37,706 bases of DNA from a virus (lineage: Duplodnaviria > Heunggongvirae > Uroviricota > Caudoviricetes). The stretch is taken from positions 66,117-103,822 of IMG/VR virus record IMGVR_UViG_3300034170_000024; one strand, 5' to 3'. The notes beneath the pieces were generated by a model, which was not told the origin of the DNA, did not search any database, and worked only from the letters and a program-made list of their open reading frames with translations. This document shows positions 7,423 through 23,729 of this stretch, in pieces. The position numbers and the translations under genes were made by a program. Each line of letters opens with the position of its first letter. The first letter of the stretch is position 1.

Positions 7423-7674
7423 ATGTCTATCTTCGCAACTATCGCTGTAGTTTGCACAATGGCAACCTGTAATGACTATGTGATCGATACGGCACCGACC
7501 ATGCAAGATGCAAACCGTAATACTGATATGCATGATGATCGTTTTCTAGCCTTGTGGGGCGATGAAAAGATGTTGACAGATTGGTTGACAGAATTTAAAA
7601 TCGGTGAAACTGTTTTCGAAATCGTTTCCCTTGAAATGGAAACAAAAGAGATTGAAGAGGAATTGATTCCATGA
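7423..7674 (+). CDS. early hypothetical protein, hydrophobic N-terminus
   Basis: ORF track; GAGG RBS. Confidence 0.75.
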   Translation: MSIFATIAVVCTMATCNDYVIDTAPTMQDANRNTDMHDDRFLALWGDEKMLTDWLTEFKIGETVFEIVSLEMETKEIEEELIP

Positions 7675-7862
7675 TGCCATGGGAAACGTTTATACAAGTG
7701 ATAATCTTTATCATTATATTCTTTACCTTTGCTGTTTCCTTCCTAATGTACCTTGATGGGTATTGGTCACCGGTAAGGGTTGACAAACGGCGTTTAAATG
7801 CTAATACCTTTTCAGCTATCGATAGACGAATGGAACTGAAAAGAAATCAAAATAAGTATTGA
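7671..7862 (+). CDS. small membrane protein
   Basis: One strongly hydrophobic segment; ATGA overlap. Confidence 0.65.
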   Translation: MMPWETFIQVIIFIIIFFTFAVSFLMYLDGYWSPVRVDKRRLNANTFSAIDRRMELKRNQNKY

Positions 7863-7886
7863 CCTGTTATCTAAAGAGTGTAGAAT
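7859..7886 (+). promoter_or_regulatory. sigma70-type early promoter
   Basis: TTGACC-N16-TAGAAT, TCTAAAG in spacer. Confidence 0.8.
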
Positions 7887-7936
7887 GGGCGTCAAGAAGG
7901 AGAGAAAAGGTTCTCTCCTAAAGATAAGGTGACAAA

Positions 7937-8032
7937 ATGAACTACTTGCTCGCTTTGCCCGGTGGTGTAGCTATCACCTACATGGTTCTTTCTATGATTC
8001 ATTACGGTTCAATCTTGACTGTAGGTATGTAA
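7937..8032 (+). CDS. 31-aa hydrophobic peptide
   Basis: Manually translated MNYLLALPGGVAITYMVLSMIHYGSILTVGM; TAAGGTG RBS right after promoter. Confidence 0.65.
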   Translation: MNYLLALPGGVAITYMVLSMIHYGSILTVGM

Positions 8033-8033
8033 A

Positions 8034-8285
8034 ATGATTACCATAACAAGCTTGACACACCCAACAATGATTGCTAAGATTCGACTGGCAATGAAATTAA
8101 GTTTTCTAGGTCAGGGTGAAAAGATGAATGGTCACGGCAACCGCTGTTACATTCAAGACCGTAAAGGTCGCAACATTATGCGCTTGCAATACACCGATAA
8201 CAAGTTTACAATATACGGCGATGAGTCGAAAGATATAACCAAACTTGTTTCAGATGCACTAATTAAAGCTCAGAAGAGTAACTAA
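8034..8285 (+). CDS. early hypothetical protein
   Basis: ORF track; start uncertain. Confidence 0.65.
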   Translation: MITITSLTHPTMIAKIRLAMKLSFLGQGEKMNGHGNRCYIQDRKGRNIMRLQYTDNKFTIYGDESKDITKLVSDALIKAQKSN

Positions 8286-8287
8286 CA

Positions 8288-8482
8288 ATGAAAAAACATA
8301 ACTTTCTTAATGTGTTCAATATCTCGAAAGCCTTGCATCTTCTGGAAAATGGTTTAGATTATGCTGACATGATCGATGATCTTGTAATGGTTGTTGCCCC
8401 TGATAATACAGTATGGGTATGTAAGGACGACGGCGTTAGTTGTGGGTTTAACTCTTTAAAGTTGGTTCAACGTATTGTTTAA
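8288..8482 (+). CDS. early hypothetical protein
   Basis: ORF track. Confidence 0.65.
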   Translation: MKKHNFLNVFNISKALHLLENGLDYADMIDDLVMVVAPDNTVWVCKDDGVSCGFNSLKLVQRIV

Positions 8483-8556
8483 TTATTAACAGAAAGTTCT
8501 AACAAGTAAAAAGAACTTTCGATTAATAATTAACGTAATAACTAATAGGAGTTCTA

Positions 8557-8715
8557 ATGAATAACAAGTATCGCGTAGTAATGACTGATTCGGTTAACGG
8601 TGAACGTTTCACATTTGCGGTTGTATACCATGCAGCTAACGCAAATGTCGCCGGACATATGGCTATGTCTGAGTGGGACAACTTGACAATTGTTGAAACT
8701 CGCCGGGTGTTCTAA
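8557..8715 (+). CDS. early hypothetical protein (52 aa)
   Basis: Manually translated MNNKYRVVMTDSVNG...; AGGAG RBS. Confidence 0.7.
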   Translation: MNNKYRVVMTDSVNGERFTFAVVYHAANANVAGHMAMSEWDNLTIVETRRVF

Positions 8716-8717
8716 AT

Positions 8718-9020
8718 ATGTTTGTAAGGAAATCAAAGTTTGATGCAGTACAGCGACAACGCGAAGTTAATGCTAATGCTTACTGGCAGTTGCAACGCGA
8801 GTATCACGCGCTAGATAATAAGCATGATGAACTAGTCGAACGTCTGAACAACCTTGTCAGAAAGGTTAACGACAACGGTGGTGTTGAAATGATCGGTAAA
8901 CGTTCTCAGTTTACAGACTCAGAACTTCGAAGCCTGTTGCAACTGGTACACCCTGACAAACATGATGGTAAAGAAAGCGCGAAAATTCTTACCCAAAAAA
9001 TTAACCAATTGAGAGCTTGA
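8718..9020 (+). CDS. coiled-coil protein with minimal C-terminal J-domain (HPD motif)
   Basis: LRSLLQLVHPDKHDG...TQKINQLR = helix II-HPD-helix III of DnaJ-type J-domains. Confidence 0.65.
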   Translation: MFVRKSKFDAVQRQREVNANAYWQLQREYHALDNKHDELVERLNNLVRKVNDNGGVEMIGKRSQFTDSELRSLLQLVHPDKHDGKESAKILTQKINQLRA

Positions 9021-9022
9021 CC

Positions 9023-9361
9023 ATGAAAACTTCCGAAGTACTGACTAAAGCAAAAGAACTCATTGCAACACCTGACAAATGGTATCAAGGCGACTATACA
9101 AACAATAACGGCTGTTTTTGTGCATTGGGTGCAATCGGTGAAGTTTCTTTAAAATCTGATTCTGTTGATGTATGGTATTACGGTTTTGCAAGTGAAAGTA
9201 AAGCGGGAACGCTTTTACGTAAAGTTGTTGACAGTTACATGATTGAAAACGGATACCGCGATAGCACTACGTTTGCCGTATTCAATGACAACAATTCACA
9301 TGACGACGTTATGTCAGCTTTTGATAAAGCGATTGAACTGGCAAAAGCAGAAGAGGACTAA
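9023..9361 (+). CDS. early hypothetical protein (CFCALGAI motif)
   Basis: ORF track 9017..9361; ATG start at 9023. Confidence 0.75.
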   Translation: MKTSEVLTKAKELIATPDKWYQGDYTNNNGCFCALGAIGEVSLKSDSVDVWYYGFASESKAGTLLRKVVDSYMIENGYRDSTTFAVFNDNNSHDDVMSAFDKAIELAKAEED

Positions 9362-9374
9362 CTAAGGTTCTAAA

Positions 9375-9390
9375 GGTTCCACGTGGAACA
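9375..9390. promoter_or_regulatory. parS: parS-like site 1
   Basis: GGTTCCACGTGGAACA (reverse complement TGTTCCACGTGGAACC); intergenic; matches canonical chromosomal parS consensus. Confidence 0.85.
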
Positions 9391-9426
9391 AAGCCCGCAA
9401 TCTTAATGGTTGACGGGCTTTTCTTT
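9391..9426 (+). terminator. intrinsic terminator overlapping a promoter -35 box
   Basis: AAGCCCG-caatc..ggttg-a-CGGGCTT-ttcttt; TTGACG(9410)-N17-TAGAAT(9433) overlaps it. Confidence 0.75.
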
Positions 9427-9536
9427 CGTCTGTAGAATGTGTTTCATGGTGTGGGGTTTGGCACGAGACAAACGGGGAGGGTGGACGATACATTATCAAT
9501 CTCTATCGATTAGTCTAAAGCTATAGATTTTATTCA

Positions 9537-9565
9537 TTGTACTACTTATCTAAAGGCTGTAGAAT
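9537..9565 (+). promoter_or_regulatory. sigma70-type early promoter
   Basis: TTGTAC-N17-TAGAAT, TCTAAAG in spacer. Confidence 0.75.
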
Positions 9566-9597
9566 TACTACATCAGAACAAACAACGAGTAACCAAT

Positions 9598-9960
9598 ATG
9601 AACAAATTGTGGAAATTCACCAGCGACGAAAAGAAACAAATTCGTCAAGCTGCTTTAAAAGCTACAGGTTTGAAGAGGGTGAGTTTGCAACCCGGTCAGC
9701 GTGTGTCGTTGGTGAATCAGGAACATGCCACATCAAATAACCTTCTAATGGTTGACGATGATCCAACCTTCATATTTAACAAGTCCGACCTGTGGTCAGC
9801 AGAGGATTGGAAGTGGACCTGTAAGGGTGTAGAACTGACAGCAGATGGTCGGGCATTCCTTGACATTTATGTTTACAGTGTGGGTGAATATGGTGAGCTT
9901 CAATTGAACATCGGTGTTTACTATGCTGATGGTAAGATTCAAAAAATATTCAATAATTGA
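9598..9960 (+). CDS. early hypothetical protein
   Basis: ORF track; downstream of promoter. Confidence 0.8.
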
Positions 9961-9970
9961 AAAATAAGTG

Positions 9971-9998
9971 TTGACGGTGTGGTTTGTTCCTGTAGAAT
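9971..9998 (+). promoter_or_regulatory. sigma70-type early promoter
   Basis: TTGACG-N16-TAGAAT. Confidence 0.8.
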
Positions 9999-10057
9999 AG
10001 ACCACATAAAGAAGCAAAACAGCTTCTTAAGTTAACAACTTCTCTAAAGGTGATAGA

Positions 10058-10531
10058 ATGAACGTAATGACCGAAGCACACAAAGCAGTCAAAGCAGTAT
10101 TGACTAATGCTCCTGTCGGTGTTACGTTGAACTATCGCTCTCTGTTGAAAGCAGCACTTACCGACATGCATAGGAAGAATAAAGAAATGAAACCAACTAA
10201 AACCTTGACAGTAGATCAAATGTTTGCAATCAAACACTTCGAAGATTGCATCGCTCGTACCCTTGAGCAGTTCGAAAAGTTGGGTGTTAATGATTACTAT
10301 GTCGCACTGGCAAACAATGTAGAATTGAACGATTACACACTGTTGCAACACAAAGATGTAAATGATAAACAATCTCCATTGGGTTGGGCAACATACAGCA
10401 CTGCAATCGTAACCAGTCCAGCACAAGCAGACGAATATGTAAAGGCTTTCCCCGGCACTTGCAAGCTCCATGCCCAAACGCACCTTTCGAATGTCATTCA
10501 ATCTTTCCGCGACATGCTGGAAAACGTTTAA
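10058..10531 (+). CDS. early hypothetical protein
   Basis: ORF track; AAGGTG RBS. Confidence 0.8.
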   Translation: MNVMTEAHKAVKAVLTNAPVGVTLNYRSLLKAALTDMHRKNKEMKPTKTLTVDQMFAIKHFEDCIARTLEQFEKLGVNDYYVALANNVELNDYTLLQHKDVNDKQSPLGWATYSTAIVTSPAQADEYVKAFPGTCKLHAQTHLSNVIQSFRDMLENV

Positions 10532-10538
10532 ATAAAGG

Positions 10539-10568
10539 TTGTACAGGGCATTCGAATCATAGTAGAAT
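10539..10568 (+). promoter_or_regulatory. sigma70-type early promoter
   Basis: TTGTAC-N18-TAGAAT, AATAAAGG upstream. Confidence 0.65.
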
Positions 10569-10595
10569 GCTCTAACACAAACAAAGGGTAATATC

Positions 10596-10703
10596 ATGTC
10601 ACGTACATTCCGCGACTTGTTCTCTAAAGAACTGATTACATCGACTAAAGCGACTAACAAGTATGTCAGCGAATGGCGTGACACCACAAAAGGAAAGAAA
10701 TGA
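10596..10703 (+). CDS. 35-aa basic peptide
   Basis: Manually translated MSRTFRDLFSKELIT...; AAGGG RBS; ATGA overlap with next gene. Confidence 0.6.
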   Translation: MSRTFRDLFSKELITSTKATNKYVSEWRDTTKGKK

Positions 10704-10945
10704 TGAACCTCGAAAACACTGTAAGCGTATACGGTCATGTTTTCACCTTGAACGTGGCGGTAAAAGATGGGTTGGACTGGACTGGTAAAGCTCCTAAATT
10801 TGTGCACTATTGCCTGATTCAATTGGGTGATGATAAAATACAAGCATGGTGCAAAGCCGAACGCATTAAACAGCTTATGGGTGACGACTACAAATTCACC
10901 TTTTGTGCAACCCCTAAAGTTGGATCATATAGCGAAGATATTTAA
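10700..10945 (+). CDS. early hypothetical protein
   Basis: ORF track. Confidence 0.7.
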   Translation: MMNLENTVSVYGHVFTLNVAVKDGLDWTGKAPKFVHYCLIQLGDDKIQAWCKAERIKQLMGDDYKFTFCATPKVGSYSEDI

Positions 10946-10954
10946 AGAAAATGC

Positions 10955-10982
10955 TTGTATAGTTCTCTAAAGGCTGTAGAAT
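10955..10982 (+). promoter_or_regulatory. sigma70-type early promoter
   Basis: TTGTAT-N16-TAGAAT, TCTAAAG in spacer. Confidence 0.75.
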
Positions 10983-11043
10983 AGAACACATAGGGAGGCA
11001 AGACAGCCTCCCAATCAAAAACTTCTCTAAAGGATACAACAGC

Positions 11044-11256
11044 ATGAACTTCTTCTCAGGTATCGCACTGATCTTCGTTCTGATTATGGCAACTGTTCAA
11101 TTCGCTCCTGTTGTTGGTGACCACTACCGTGCAAAAGAAGCAGCTGCAAACGCTGTTGTATTCAAAGAACAACAACACCAGCAAGCGATTAAGAACTGCG
11201 CAGAAGGCAAAGCCTCTTACATCATGTACGATGGCAAAACCTGCAAAACTAACTAA
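11044..11256 (+). CDS. small membrane-anchored/secreted protein
   Basis: N-terminal hydrophobic segment; AAGGA RBS. Confidence 0.75.
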   Translation: MNFFSGIALIFVLIMATVQFAPVVGDHYRAKEAAANAVVFKEQQHQQAIKNCAEGKASYIMYDGKTCKTN

Positions 11257-11272
11257 TGTTCCACGTGAAACA
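11257..11272. promoter_or_regulatory. parS: parS-like site 2
   Basis: TGTTCCACGTGAAACA, exact canonical parS 16-mer, immediately after a stop codon, intergenic. Confidence 0.9.
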
Positions 11273-11283
11273 GGGTTAATGAA

Positions 11284-11535
11284 ATGGGTAAGACAATCAA
11301 GCACGAAGTTTTGACAAGCAAACTGGCTTTATCAGAATGCACCGATGGGTTCTGGCTCTATGATGAAACACGTGGTATGAATCTCGCCATGCGTGCAAAG
11401 ACAGAACGAGATGCATTTGTACAAGCTTTAGGGTATTATCAAAACCGTTTGAAAGATATCGAAAGCGCTCATAACTGCTTAACCAAACGTGTTAACGAAT
11501 TCGTAAGCCAGTTTACAGAAGAAGACGAAGAATGA
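11284..11535 (+). CDS. early hypothetical protein
   Basis: ORF track. Confidence 0.75.
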   Translation: MGKTIKHEVLTSKLALSECTDGFWLYDETRGMNLAMRAKTERDAFVQALGYYQNRLKDIESAHNCLTKRVNEFVSQFTEEDEE

Positions 11536-11786
11536 TTTATATTGAAAGTCACGGTAGCAAGTCAGACGCTCTAAGCTTCGAAGTATTGCAGCACCCGGAA
11601 CACGACAAATTTTGTGTTCAATACTACAACGAAGAAAGAAAAGGTTCATGGTTTGGTTGGTGTGATGAGATTGAAACACCTCGAAAACACATTGATAAAC
11701 AACTGACTTTGTTCAAAGAAATTTATGGAGATATGAAAGCAAATGAACAATGTTCAAATGTTAAAACGCAAGTACATAATGCGTAA
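11532..11786 (+). CDS. early hypothetical protein
   Basis: ORF track; ATGA overlap. Confidence 0.7.
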   Translation: MIYIESHGSKSDALSFEVLQHPEHDKFCVQYYNEERKGSWFGWCDEIETPRKHIDKQLTLFKEIYGDMKANEQCSNVKTQVHNA

Positions 11787-11880
11787 GTGGATTGACCCAC
11801 GCGTTACACCTGACCGGGTTGAACTCTATAGAAAGCTGTTAGCTCATAGACTCACATTCAACCCAAGTCGATTACCGTAA
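11779..11880 (+). CDS. 33-aa hypothetical peptide
   Basis: Manually translated MRKWIDPRVTP...; ends at terminator. Confidence 0.45.
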   Translation: MRKWIDPRVTPDRVELYRKLLAHRLTFNPSRLP

Positions 11881-11903
11881 GCCCCTTAATTGGGGCTTTC
11901 TTT
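11879..11903 (+). terminator. intrinsic terminator
   Basis: AAGCCCC-ttaatt-GGGGCTT-tcttt. Confidence 0.85.
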
Positions 11904-11917
11904 CGTCTAAAATAAAG

Positions 11918-11948
11918 CTGTACAGTTATTCAAATTCTGTTATATAAT
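11918..11948 (+). promoter_or_regulatory. sigma70-type promoter
   Basis: AATAAAG-CTGTACA...TATAAT; no ORF directly downstream. Confidence 0.55.
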
Positions 11949-12148
11949 TATCTTACCGGTGAGGATCGGAGGCAATCACCGACCGATCCTGTAATAAAGT
12001 GTTGGCACGTTATTTTCCCGAAGCATTGTCTAATGTTGGCACGCATCTTGGTACGACGTTTTAAACACAAAGACATAGCAGTATCAGGCTTTAGTTTATC
12101 GTCGCTGTAATCGCGTTATAGAGCCTTATAGAGCATTGAAAATAAAAC

Positions 12149-12176
12149 TTGCATACTTGTCTAAAAGGTATAGAAT
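12149..12176 (+). promoter_or_regulatory. sigma70-type early promoter
   Basis: TTGCAT-N16-TAGAAT, TCTAAA in spacer. Confidence 0.75.
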
Positions 12177-12215
12177 GATCTTAACGAAACGACTTAACCA
12201 ACTAGGAATACTGAC

Positions 12216-12443
12216 ATGAACCTTCAAGAATCGAAAGTCCTCTCAATCGCTGAAGTTAAAGCCAAAGCTGTAGAATTCCACTACGATTGCGAATTGTCGG
12301 AATTTGAACTGGATGTCATGATTGGTCTGTATAACACTCTTGGTTATGATCGTGAAACAGTTATCAAAATGTGCAACGAGCAAGATGGTTTGGTAGTTTC
12401 AGACGATACCTTGTCCGCTTTTAATCGCACGATTGATCGTTAA
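12216..12443 (+). CDS. early acidic hypothetical protein
   Basis: ORF track; AGGA RBS. Confidence 0.75.
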   Translation: MNLQESKVLSIAEVKAKAVEFHYDCELSEFELDVMIGLYNTLGYDRETVIKMCNEQDGLVVSDDTLSAFNRTIDR

Positions 12444-12459
12444 TTATCTAAATAAAAGC

Positions 12460-12488
12460 TTGTACCTTTGTCTAATCATCGGTACAAT
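12460..12488 (+). promoter_or_regulatory. sigma70-type early promoter
   Basis: TTGTAC-N17-TACAAT. Confidence 0.7.
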
Positions 12489-12536
12489 ACATTTAACGAA
12501 ACGGGGAATGTCTCCCCACTTTTCTAAAGGTGTATC

Positions 12537-12698
12537 ATGATTAAGTCTTGCCCTTGCTGCAATCAAACTTTCACCAGCGGTACAGGTTTTGTTGCCGATG
12601 TCTACAGCGACGGGCAAGAACTAGAATATTGTTCTGCTGAGTGTGCCGAACATCTTTCGGATGAATATCAAGAACATCTTGACAGTTATGAGGCTTAA
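12537..12698 (+). CDS. small Cys-rich (TRASH/MYM-like metal-binding) protein, 53 aa
   Basis: Manually translated MIKSCPCCNQTF...YCSAEC...; AAGGTG RBS. Confidence 0.65.
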   Translation: MIKSCPCCNQTFTSGTGFVADVYSDGQELEYCSAECAEHLSDEYQEHLDSYEA

Positions 12699-12700
12699 TC

Positions 12701-12850
12701 ATGAAATACTTATCGAAAGAAGGTCACGTAAAAATGGCACTTGCAGCAAACAAACAAATAATTCTGGATGCAAAGCGTAACCTGTGGACGCTTGTCGCTT
12801 GTGGTCGAATTAGTCGCGATAGTCATATGTTAATGGCTCGTGAAGCATAA
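12701..12850 (+). CDS. hypothetical protein (49 aa)
   Basis: Manually translated MKYLSKEGHVK...; GAGG RBS; followed by terminator. Confidence 0.6.
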   Translation: MKYLSKEGHVKMALAANKQIILDAKRNLWTLVACGRISRDSHMLMAREA

Positions 12851-12859
12851 GCAAAATAG

Positions 12860-12882
12860 AGCCCCTTTCGAGGGGCTTTCTT
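12860..12882 (+). terminator. intrinsic terminator ending the early region
   Basis: AGCCCCT-TTCG-AGGGGCT-ttctt. Confidence 0.85.
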
Positions 12883-13359
12883 GTATGTCGCATATCTATA
12901 CGTTTATGTCAAGATATGGTCTAGTCATAATCGATTGTTTATGAGTATAATGCTCTTATCTTCTGTGGTAGCTACCACAGTGAGTATAGAGAGAGGGAGG
13001 GGGATAAACTCCCCTCCTAAAGAAGTATAATATTATGTTGTATACAACATAGATAACAGATAGTATATCAGGTTATCAAACAGGGTAGTAACCCCTGTTC
13101 CCTCCTACCCTATGCTATGCATAGCGGCTATAAGCTCCTACAGTACCCCTCATTGCAACGCAATAAACATACCCTACCGTGTGCATAGCACACAATACAA
13201 CATCTCTCTGAAAGCCTTACAGACCATGGCTTACAGCCATAAGCATATAACAAACCATGTCGTTTAACGACATAATAGTACCTATTCACATATAAGGCTA
13301 TTCGAGGGTATAGCGTACACACCTGTGGGTGGGTTAAGCGTCCCTCTCTAGTTCCCTAT

Positions 13360-13375
13360 TGTTCCACGTGGAACG
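13360..13375. promoter_or_regulatory. parS: parS-like site 3
   Basis: TGTTCCACGTGGAACG; non-coding region. Confidence 0.85.
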
Positions 13376-13463
13376 GATACAAATTACCCTGTATAACAGG
13401 GGATAAATAATATTCGATATCATTCTCACATAGATACATTTCGAGGGTAATGTTCAATAAAAG

Positions 13464-13493
13464 GTGTACATTCGGTTTACTATGGTGTATTAT
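13464..13493 (+). promoter_or_regulatory. possible early-type promoter pointing into the convergent region
   Basis: AATAAAAG-GTGTACA...TATTAT, same upstream pattern as promoters at 10539/11918/12460. Confidence 0.45.
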
Positions 13494-13890
13494 GTGTCAT
13501 AGGTGAAAGGTTCGTGCAATGCGGACATATGTAGTCATTTGCCTAGTCTCCTGTTGTGGTTGTCCCCTGTGCATACAGGGTAGGGGGATGCGCATTACGT
13601 ATAACGAGTATTATGTTAAATCCCTTTTAATGCTTATCATTCATAGCTTACATGCATACTTGAATGCATATGTCAACAATCATATGGCTAGGGATCACAT
13701 ATCATAGATGGGTGCCTATGTCTAGGGATTTTAGGATTATCAGACGGGTGGTGGTCTGCCAGAAGTCCGGGGCGTTAAACACCTCAGATCAATATCTGGT
13801 TAAAAAGAGTAGAGGGATTATCGGGGAGTAGGATTTTGGGAAGGGTTGTAATTGGGGAAGTCAAAAATAGGGGGAATTGAATTTTTGGGC

Positions 13891-13921
13891 AAAAAGAAGC
13901 CCCAGCTTATTAGGCTAGGGC
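13891..13921 (-). terminator. intrinsic terminator of the minus-strand block
   Basis: GCCCTAGC-ctaataa-GCTGGGGC-ttcttttt on the minus strand. Confidence 0.75.
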
Positions 13922-13927
13922 GATTGT

Positions 13928-14137
13928 TTATTGTTGTGTAACGATTAGTTCAACTTGATCGAGTGAGTTGGTTTCACCATTGCCGTCAAATGATGTTCTG
14001 AGTACGTGTCCTACTTCAACTACTTTGTAGCGTCTGTCTCTGTAATAGATCATTTCACCAACTGTTGGGTGAGTACTAGCTACATATCTGAATGATGGAT
14101 CGTTACCAAGTGGGTGTACTTTGATTTGGTATTTCAT
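13928..14137 (-). CDS. hypothetical protein
   Basis: ORF track; ATGA coupling. Confidence 0.7.
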   Translation of the reverse strand: MKYQIKVHPLGNDPSFRYVASTHPTVGEMIYYRDRRYKVVEVGHVLRTSFDGNGETNSLDQVELIVTQQ

Positions 14138-19892: not shown

Positions 19893-20272
19893 TTTCCATT
19901 CCTTATTCCGAAGTGCTTAAATAGGATATCGTTCATTTCAGCAAATAGTTTCGGGCTACTCACGGGCATTTTTGCCATACCTGTACCGATACCATTCTGA
20001 GGGAATACGATTGTACGCCTTTTACCAAGGGTATACAACTCCCGCAGAGCACTTAAAACATGTTCACGTTCACAATCTTTATCTGTGAAGAATGAACCGG
20101 GTGCCATTGATGGATATCGTTTTGTTGGAATGCCGAATGCGTTAGGTTCATTTCGGATACAAGCTTGCCCGGCAGTGCCATATCCAGCGAGGTTATCGCC
20201 AAACACAAACACGAAGCCGGGGAATTCTTGACACTTCCGAACTGTTAAGTCGTTAGTGTATTCAATGTTCAT
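19889..20272 (-). CDS. conserved phage protein (FVFGDN...NAFGIPTK family)
   Basis: Recognisable phage family motif; function not assignable by eye. Confidence 0.7.
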   Translation of the reverse strand: MNIEYTNDLTVRKCQEFPGFVFVFGDNLAGYGTAGQACIRNEPNAFGIPTKRYPSMAPGSFFTDKDCEREHVLSALRELYTLGKRRTIVFPQNGIGTGMAKMPVSSPKLFAEMNDILFKHFGIRNGK

Positions 20273-20427
20273 TCTGGTTCAACTGCTCCTCTTTTACGAG
20301 CCTCATGGAACACTTCAAAGTTCATCAATGCCAGTTGCTCATTTGTCAACTTCTCAATATCACGAATTGTACGCTTGAAGTTATTGAACACGTTACGATC
20401 CTGACCTTCCGGTTGTACTAGTTTCAT
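20269..20427 (-). CDS. hypothetical protein (52 aa)
   Basis: Manually translated MKLVQPEGQDR...; ATGA coupling at both ends. Confidence 0.65.
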   Translation of the reverse strand: MKLVQPEGQDRNVFNNFKRTIRDIEKLTNEQLALMNFEVFHEARKRGAVEPE

Positions 20428-20606
20428 CGTTGACCATCGCTCCCTGTAAAGTGTAATTGCCAGCCAATCATTTCGTTACCGTTGAACATCTTTCGAATAG
20501 TCAACTCTTCTGGTTCAACAAACCGACAGTAATCCAATGCTGCACTTAAGTTTTTGAACGTATAACTTTTCACTGTTGGGTTTTGTACTTCACCCTCTAA
20601 AATCAT
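20424..20606 (-). CDS. hypothetical protein
   Basis: ORF track. Confidence 0.65.
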   Translation of the reverse strand: MILEGEVQNPTVKSYTFKNLSAALDYCRFVEPEELTIRKMFNGNEMIGWQLHFTGSDGQR

Positions 20607-21337
20607 TTCATACTCCTGAATAGTTTGTCATCAATCTCTACCAAATTGATTTTGTCATTAAAGAAGCTACCACCATCAATGAACAACATATTACCAAGAC
20701 GTTCAATGTTACCACTGTCTGTCGGTGTATGTCCAACAATTACGAAGTCAACACCTTTAACTTGCCCATTGAATTGAGAATCATACCAGCGTCTTGACCA
20801 TTGTGCAACTGCTTGTGCGTGATCACGTTCAGATTCTACAATGTCAACCCATTTGTCCCAATCATTATATGGTACTTCGGCATGTACCATGCCAACTTTT
20901 CGACCGTGTGGCAATAGCAATTCAATACCGAGTGGCATTGCACTAAATGATTCGTGGATTAGGATTTTGTCAAGGTCTGTCAAACCACTATTCCAAATCC
21001 AGTCACCACCATGTGCTTTCAATGTCAGCACACTTCGATTATTTGGGTGCCAGTGTGATTCAAAACCATCAATGTACATCTTTTCGTGGTTACCTTGTAA
21101 GCTATGAGCCCAAGGTTCATTTACATAGTCGAGAACATAACGACTGTCAGGACCACGATCTGTCCAATCACCGATTACAAATAGCATGTCTGTTTTTGAG
21201 TTGAATCCAGCTTCACGAAGTGCCTCATGCAATAAGTCATAGTGACCGTGCAAATCACTTACTGCAAAGATTCGACCTTTGAAATTCCGCAAATCATATT
21301 GTGCTACGTGATTGCACGATCCTATTAACTTACGCAT
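20603..21337 (-). CDS. Ser/Thr protein phosphatase (calcineurin-like metallophosphoesterase, lambda NinI type)
   Basis: DLHG, GDWTDRG, GNHE, GHT motifs. Confidence 0.9.
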   Translation of the reverse strand: MRKLIGSCNHVAQYDLRNFKGRIFAVSDLHGHYDLLHEALREAGFNSKTDMLFVIGDWTDRGPDSRYVLDYVNEPWAHSLQGNHEKMYIDGFESHWHPNNRSVLTLKAHGGDWIWNSGLTDLDKILIHESFSAMPLGIELLLPHGRKVGMVHAEVPYNDWDKWVDIVESERDHAQAVAQWSRRWYDSQFNGQVKGVDFVIVGHTPTDSGNIERLGNMLFIDGGSFFNDKINLVEIDDKLFRSMK

Positions 21338-23532: not shown

Positions 23533-23729
23533 ACAATCACCTTATATTCAAATGCACTACCTGAATACAAAGAGTGAGAGTGACCATATTCAATTTCAGA
23601 AACTGGAATCTCACGAATGTAACAGCTATTTGTTTTACCGTAGAACTGTTCAACGTGGATCAACTCACCACGCTTGTTATAGATTGATACTGATGCATCA
23701 CCGAACAACTTTTCGACAATAATTCTCAT
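23529..23729 (-). CDS. hypothetical protein
   Basis: ORF track; ATGA coupling. Confidence 0.7.
   Translation of the reverse strand: MRIIVEKLFGDASVSIYNKRGELIHVEQFYGKTNSCYIREIPVSEIEYGHSHSLYSGSAFEYKVIV

Follow-up and report, generated by a model that had tools for sequence, protein, structure and literature searches.

Clustered chromosomal-type parS sites on a virulent Pseudomonas phage without partition genes are probable loading points for host ParB

We found that the genome of a tailed phage (here G000) carries three copies of parS, the site at which bacterial ParB proteins load onto DNA, in a 37,706-nucleotide (nt) stretch that we refer to as the window (bases 66117-103822 of the 103,822-bp virus record IMGVR_UViG_3300034170_000024, which is rated complete). 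Comparisons of this sequence with related phages and with Pseudomonas chromosomes suggest that these are probably selected sites of the chromosomal type, carried by a virulent Pseudomonas phage that lacks partition genes, and that they load the ParB of the host. The clamps that ParB forms with cytidine triphosphate (CTP) are the subject of a very active field, in which they are studied as devices for segregating chromosomes and plasmids. To our knowledge, phi29 is the only phage known to borrow host ParB by way of orphan parS sites, and it does so in the setting of sporulation. Unless stated otherwise, site coordinates are window positions.

The initial annotation of the window had listed three intergenic 16-mers, had seen no further copy in the rest of the window, and had judged three to be too many for chance. 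Each of these statements held. The 16-mers at 9375, 11257 and 13360 are present exactly as written, all three lie between genes, and there are no other sites in the whole 103.8-kb genome. Each has at most one outer or tolerated mismatch to Pseudomonas parS (Table 1). When compared to the 16-bp palindrome TGTTNCACGTGAAACA / TGTTCCACGTGGAACA, one site matches at 16/16 positions and two match at 15/16, with the outermost position off; the reverse complement of site 1, TGTTCCACGTGGAACC, is the sequence of P. aeruginosa parS1/parS4 and of origin-proximal sites in P. putida. Base composition predicts 0.0013 copies of GTTYCACGTGRAAC per genome, which gives a Poisson probability of ~3e-10 for three or more. 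When up to three mismatches were allowed, the window yielded a single extra match, TGTTCAACGTGGATCA at 23647, and none of 100 dinucleotide-preserving shuffles of the window gave four hits (mean 0.16). The probability that three random points fall within 4 kb of each other is ~0.004. The three sites are not chance matches. As for the extra match, it recurs in a relative, G005, and is probably a conserved codon string rather than a site.

The proposal that these are canonical host-type chromosomal parS was also borne out: they are identical to sites on five Pseudomonas chromosomes and to the published parS of PAO1 and P. putida. The chromosomes searched, with at most one mismatch, were those of P. 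putida PSE7, P. putida QH1, P. migulae, P. monachiensis and P. gorinensis. Each contains just 3-5 matches in 6-7 Mb, all situated around the origin, and the matches read TGTTCCACGTGGAACA, TGTTCCACGTGGAACC or TGTTCCACGTGGAACT. PAO1 ParB has its highest affinity for the perfect palindrome and for the outer-position variant (parS1/parS4); any one of the four P. aeruginosa sites parS1-4 suffices for segregation, and the weakest site is parS5, whose core is mutated (PMC4368675). PAO1 ParB recognises both GTTCCAC and GTTTCAC half-sites (PMC7022226, Table 1), and P. putida has three TGTTCCACGTGGAACA sites near its origin (PMC7022226). The phage cluster therefore resembles the origin-proximal cluster of Pseudomonas in using the same 16 bp, including the outer-position variant, in having 3-5 copies, and in being clustered on a scale of kilobases. 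The two differ in that the chromosomal sites lie near oriC and parAB and are spread over tens of kilobases, while the phage sites are ~2 kb apart. Copy number is alike, but the density of sites is ~29 per Mb in the phage versus ~0.6 per Mb in the host chromosome (~45 times).

The DNA comes from peat metagenomes. G000 encodes a portal, prohead protease, major head protein, primase-helicase, ribonucleotide reductase, DNA ligase, RNA ligase and polynucleotide kinase, and further encodes a nicotinamide phosphoribosyltransferase and eight transfer RNAs (tRNAs). Its nearest cultured relatives by portal protein are vB_PpS_SYP (SYP; P. plecoglossicida; 81%) and phiPMW (P. putida PpG1; genus Plaisancevirus; 68%). 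According to the paper that describes it, phiPMW has a contractile tail, is distantly related to the FelixO1 group, and has DNA that is cut by ordinary restriction enzymes. A search for tyrosine integrase found no match in G000 or in four relatives. The host is most probably a Pseudomonas, and the phage is most probably virulent. Two earlier suggestions, that the host is not an enterobacterium and that the phage is lytic, fit this picture, as P. putida and P. plecoglossicida are the hosts of the closest cultured relatives and no integrase was found in G000. Although the record is classed as linear, bases 1-462 recur at 103361-103822, and this 462-base terminal repeat indicates that the genome was assembled as a circle. 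With a circular assembly, the suggestion in the initial annotation that the sites are on the DNA that enters first is not supported. We also noted a conserved 251-amino-acid protein with an N-terminal dATP/dGTP diphosphohydrolase (MazZ-like) domain at 54368-55123 of G000 (L006:14368-15123). A Z-genome was considered on this account and rejected: a PurZ-type adenylosuccinate synthetase does not accompany the MazZ-like domain, and phiPMW DNA is cut by ordinary enzymes.

The initial annotation had seen no parAB, and this absence extends beyond the window to the complete genome. We ran six-frame profile searches with PF02195 (ParB_N), TIGR00180, PF17762 (HTH_ParB; HTH, helix-turn-helix) and PF13614 (AAA_31, ParA), with control genomes positive in every search, and none of the four matched anywhere in complete G000. 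ParB_N was likewise absent from 16 relatives, and TIGR00180, HTH_ParB and AAA_31 were each absent from four relatives. Because parA and parB are not encoded beside the sites, the sites are not part of a plasmid-prophage partition cassette. P1 (parAB-parS) and N15 (sopAB-sopC) are, like this phage, phage genomes with centromere sites, but they are temperate, encode their own ParA and ParB, and use their own specific centromere sequence. The centromere sites of P1 and N15 serve episome inheritance.

Absence of the sites from related phages had been named as a finding that would refute the proposal; conservation instead proved to be both strong and positional. We compiled a clade set of 11 complete genomes, consisting of G000, eight IMG/VR relatives of ~100 kb, SYP and phiPMW. 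Six of the eight IMG/VR relatives have 2-3 canonical sites each, SYP has five, and phiPMW (KU862660) has three core-variant sites; G004 and G008 have 0 canonical sites. Altogether there are 22 canonical sites in eight clade genomes. Wherever sites are present, they lie within a few kb, in the terminal part of the rightward early block and the noncoding junction, and the junction holds at least one site in every parS-bearing clade genome. The slot after the DUF6197 gene is occupied in G000, G005, G007 and G002, and a slot just before another small gene is occupied in two genomes. When the 22 sites are compared, variation is limited to a C/T choice at position 5, a G/A choice at position 12 and slight differences at positions 1 and 16; all other positions (2-4, 6-11 and 13-15) are the same throughout. 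The variable positions (1, 5, 12 and 16) are those tolerated in natural parS. Because our site search accepted up to two mismatches at any of positions 2-15 (the 14-base core), this pattern of invariance was not imposed by the search. Information content drops to ~0 at the first base beyond the 16 bp on both sides, and the flanks of different sites have no similarity to each other. This pattern indicates that the sites are under purifying selection.

The genomes of the clade also supply a natural experiment on the parS core, CACGTG. All eleven avoid 9-20 six-base palindromes, with sets that differ by genome, as expected for virulent phages under restriction pressure. CACGTG itself is purged in three of them: it occurs 0 times in G004 (14 expected), 0 times in phiPMW (5.5 expected) and twice in G008 (9.7 expected). 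In the eight site-bearing genomes it occurs 13-52 times and is not depleted. The purge is probably a lineage-specific form of restriction avoidance. In a midpoint-rooted tree of 20 core proteins, G004 pairs with SYP (five sites) and G008 with G007 (two sites) as sisters, and phiPMW is sister to the SYP/G004 pair. Since the three purged genomes branch separately, the purges were independent. Neither G004 nor G008 has a recognisable site or a replacement palindrome. The phiPMW sites, in turn, are TGTTCCACATGGAACA (twice) and TGTTCCATGTGGAACA (once), each of which matches at 15/16 positions with a lone change that destroys CACGTG; by a hand estimate from base composition, the chance expectation for three such matches is ~5e-5. 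It appears that, under restriction pressure on the CACGTG core, lineages either lost their sites or weakened the core. We read this to mean that the parS element is worth keeping even in weakened form, yet is not essential. As far as these genome comparisons can indicate, the function is beneficial but dispensable.

Host-type parS clusters are also found outside of the clade. A second lineage, with ~39% portal identity, comprises Amme-3, KoPa-4, NoPa, Roomu-2 and Kassivere, which are cultured myoviruses of P. putida KT2440/PaW85. Each phage of this Amme-3 group has three canonical sites in a layout like that of the clade: two flank a DndB-like gene (one before its promoter, the other between stop codon and terminator), and the third is in a ~1-kb noncoding convergent junction. 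XD2, a phage of P. aeruginosa, has four sites, two of which are in the homologous junction. No ParB domain was found in the Amme-3 group phages or in XD2. There was no site in an Otagovirus, an Ounavirinae member, a Pakpunavirus or four ~90-kb IMG/VR relatives.

The sites have a recurrent setting within these genomes. The junction of G000 is where the rightward early block meets the leftward block, and it contains many short inverted repeats. Equivalent gaps are found at 20016-20814 in phiPMW (two sites) and 65524-66547 in Amme-3 (one site), and the equivalent junctions of phiPMW, Amme-3 and XD2 each hold at least one parS. An Rfam search of the window returned only tRNAs and no family in the junction. 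Within the window, site 2 begins directly after the stop codon of the gene at 11044-11256 and ends 11 nt before the gene at 11284-11535, such that it takes up most of the 27-nt gap between these two small genes. Site 1 is followed by an intrinsic terminator, whose loop and descending arm contain the -35 box (TTGACG, 9410) of the next early promoter, a sigma-70 promoter of the form TTGACG-17-TAGAAT at 9410-9438. More generally, 11 of 25 sites lie 0-6 nt past a stop codon and 1-6 nt ahead of an intrinsic terminator. Site A of Amme-3 is ~20 nt upstream of a -35 box, and in the junction other sites precede GATAAT-like boxes by 10-40 nt. Of the 14 asymmetric clade sites, 13 face the same way, giving TGTTCCACGTGAAACA when read along the sense strand of the early transcripts. 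As separate observations, contigs of related phages from peat and from another sample lose synteny exactly at the ends of parS (9390, 11272 and 13357), which reflects either mosaic module boundaries or an aligner catching the shared 16-mer; RNA contigs from peat span the early genes and not 12850-13940, and were not counted as evidence.

Table 1. Positions of the parS sites and of associated features in the window.
Feature	Position	Strand	Description
parS site 1	9375-9390	no strand	GGTTCCACGTGGAACA; 13 nt past the stop codon of the DUF6197 gene
parS site 2	11257-11272	no strand	TGTTCCACGTGAAACA; 16/16 match to the general chromosomal consensus TGTTNCACGTGAAACA
parS site 3	13360-13375	no strand	TGTTCCACGTGGAACG; inside the noncoding junction
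DUF6197 gene	9017..9361	+	PF19698, E 8e-16 (family f245); parS behind the 3' end in four clade genomes
Intrinsic terminator	9389..9432	+	directly downstream of site 1; -18.3 kcal/mol, z -4.3, then U run
Noncoding junction	12850..13950	no strand	~1.1 kb; rightward early block meets leftward block; many short inverted repeats
Look-alike	23647-23662		TGTTCAACGTGGATCA; in coding sequence; off at two positions that are invariant in real sites

How might a virulent phage use such sites? After entry, the three sites would nucleate host ParB dimers, which on binding CTP would close as clamps, slide away from the sites and so build a partition-type ParB complex over the last early region and the adjoining noncoding junction. 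This complex could hook the phage chromosome to host ParA/ParB, and possibly to SMC, which would position it on the nucleoid and pass it to both daughter cells when lytic growth stalls in a starved or carrier state. We favour partition or carrier-state use by analogy, because the only characterised precedent, phi29, uses its sites in this way, but we regard this purpose as about half as likely as the core claim that the sites load host ParB. The initial annotation overstated the novelty of the arrangement in this respect: PMC2731898, with reference to Meijer et al. 2005, describes five parS on the virulent phage phi29 that are bound by host Spo0J and that aid segregation of its genome into the prespore. 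Our search of the literature on host-type parS in lytic or Pseudomonas phages returned only this phi29 work; it contained no report of host-type parS in Gram-negative lytic phages, those of Pseudomonas included, and the papers describing phiPMW and the Amme-3 (CEPEST) collection make no mention of parS.

Like the phage described here, phi29 is virulent, has no ParB of its own, and carries several host-type chromosomal parS, and it exploits a host ParB homologue to segregate its genome while lytic growth is suspended; the same role is conceivable here by analogy. It is unlike this phage in being a 19-kb protein-primed podovirus of a sporulating Firmicute, in which entrapment in the prespore works together with Spo0A boxes. 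The phage described here, by contrast, is of the myovirus type, has a genome of ~104 kb and a Gram-negative host that does not sporulate, and its sites form a cluster that spans the end of the early region and the junction. What is new relative to phi29 is thus the Gram-negative, non-sporulating host, the type of phage and the arrangement of the sites, and the purpose presumably differs as well. A looser parallel is SGI1, which, by the account in PMC10954446, exploits the parABS system of IncC plasmids. On that account, SGI1 is likewise a mobile element that uses the ParAB system of another replicon, but it is an integrative mobilisable element that draws on a helper plasmid's system for stable inheritance, whereas here a virulent phage would draw on a chromosomal one.

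Several points weigh against a role in partition, or against host ParB as the protein involved. Two lineages fully dispense with the sites, so any benefit must be conditional, and the core change in phiPMW should, by comparison with PAO1 parS5, lower ParB affinity. The clade is not known to enter a carrier state or pseudolysogeny. The sites are at a convergent junction that is not an obvious replication origin, and the authors of the phiPMW paper place the minimum of guanine-cytosine (GC) skew at 40 kb, while the phiPMW sites are at 15-21 kb. A pure partition model does not predict the shared orientation of the sites or their placement just before terminators. Finally, the reader of the sites could be a small phage protein whose fold is unknown; such a protein could even persist in G004 and G008, which leaves the phylogenetic profile described below with little power.

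The principal alternative is that the sites act as a sponge, titrating host ParB off the origin and derailing segregation and ParB-dependent regulation to the advantage of the phage. Each replicated genome would add three strong sites to a cell whose chromosome has 3-5, and ParB loss in P. aeruginosa is reported to disturb segregation, cell size, growth and motility (PMC7022226, Table 1). The dispensability of the sites would suit an accessory takeover function. A sponge would work anywhere in the genome, however, and in both of the distant lineages the sites are confined to one location that always includes the junction. Moreover, since Pseudomonas can do without ParB, what the phage would gain in the course of a single lytic cycle is hard to see. 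On balance we consider titration unlikely. Less likely still is control of transcription, in which ParB at the sites, or spreading from them, would serve as a roadblock, insulator or silencer of the early units or of a junction promoter. This would account for the proximity of 11 of the 25 sites to a stop codon and terminator and of others to -35 or GATAAT-like boxes, as well as for the common orientation of 13 of the 14 asymmetric sites. It also has a counterpart in PAO1, whose ParB is reported to repress promoters beside parS3 and parS4 (10.1101/151340), and in unrelated viral contigs, described below, where tandem parS pairs directly follow a -10 box. Yet terminators without parS are common nearby (e.g. 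at 11879 and 12858), the distances between sites and promoters are not constant, and the gap between stop codon and terminator may just be the one neutral place in a packed genome.

We give similarly low credence to the possibility that the sites are read by a phage-encoded protein rather than by host ParB, be it a small protein or a DGQHR/DndB-like one, in which case the likeness to parS would have arisen by convergence or be left over from a partition cassette since lost. Functions are known for only a minority of the early genes, and two candidates drew our attention. G000 holds a gene for a 287-amino-acid DGQHR protein of ParB fold (a weak profile match), 23 kb upstream of the window. We rejected this candidate: a homologue was found in 0 of 14 relatives, it is a single-member family among 11 clustered genomes, and it has no solved relative by sequence. 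A protein without homologues in the relatives cannot be the common reader. The other candidate is a DndB-family (DGQHR, ParB-fold) gene of 484-487 amino acids, which is found at 7671-9125 in SYP (OQ183418) and at 60993-62456 in Amme-3 (PP496413; L356:2494-3957). It is 83% identical between the two phages, though their portals are only ~39% identical, and a parS lies directly behind it in SYP and the Amme-3 group, which also has one ahead. This gene was rejected as well, being absent from nine parS-bearing genomes and present in the site-less Psxphi15. A phylogenetic profile over the 11 clustered genomes revealed no gene family that tracks site presence, with the low power that two site-less genomes afford. 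A pair of SPFH lipoproteins came closest (7/8 site-bearing versus 0/2 site-less genomes) and was set aside as biologically implausible for a reader. Searches of the conserved small proteins against Pfam and PHROGs found no DNA-binding family, and no ParB-type HTH was found in G000 or the four relatives searched. Thus neither of the two candidates, nor any family, co-varies with the sites, and it is difficult to see what other than host ParB would account for 16/16 identity to host sites together with tolerance at the same positions.

It is very improbable that the sites act as a hairpin in RNA or DNA, or that they are neutral relics arising by chance or from captured host DNA. Sites 1 and 3 can form a 5-bp RNA hairpin (~-6 kcal/mol), and the sites are transcribed as 3' untranslated regions. 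But asymmetry without a compensating change is found in 14 of the 22 sites, and the RNA of asymmetric site 2 is unfolded (0 kcal/mol), which together rule out a hairpin function. Chance is excluded by the statistics given above, and because flanks are unrelated and conservation ends exactly at 16 bp, the sites are not captured fragments of host DNA.

Among virulent Pseudomonas phages with genomes of ~100 kb, no fewer than two lineages have conserved clusters of host parS. As both lineages include cultured phages (the Amme-3 group on KT2440, phiPMW on PpG1 and XD2 on P. aeruginosa), the finding from sequence is directly testable in KT2440 and PAO1. Work on these sites could reveal how the DNA of lytic phages is positioned, inherited in non-growing cells, silenced or shielded. 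The sites also present a case in which two selective forces clash on one 16-bp element, one keeping a site for a host factor and the other avoiding a restriction site.

It is possible, if somewhat short of probable, that orphan host-type parS clusters are a general and overlooked strategy of virulent phages of ParB-bearing bacteria, in which host ParB-CTP clamps would serve as a chromatin, positioning or regulatory factor and CACGTG restriction would decide which lineages can afford the sites. This suggestion draws on the two Pseudomonas myovirus lineages and on 11 unrelated IMG/VR contigs. A scan of IMG/VR for the perfect palindrome matched at least 120 contigs, and among the 120 contigs listed, 11 hold a second site nearby (L027, L039, L054, L076, L099, L102, L107, L112, L119, L131 and L140). 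These 11 are unrelated and range in GC content from 28-54%. No ParB_N, no tyrosine integrase and no ParA match above the family cut-off was found in them. Three of the 11 are complete genomes of 37-54 kb with terminal overlaps, for which the phage collection yielded no named relative. All 11 have at least two parS within a few hundred bases; in some, tandem pairs of sites sit directly after a -10 box, and one locus carries an array of half-sites.

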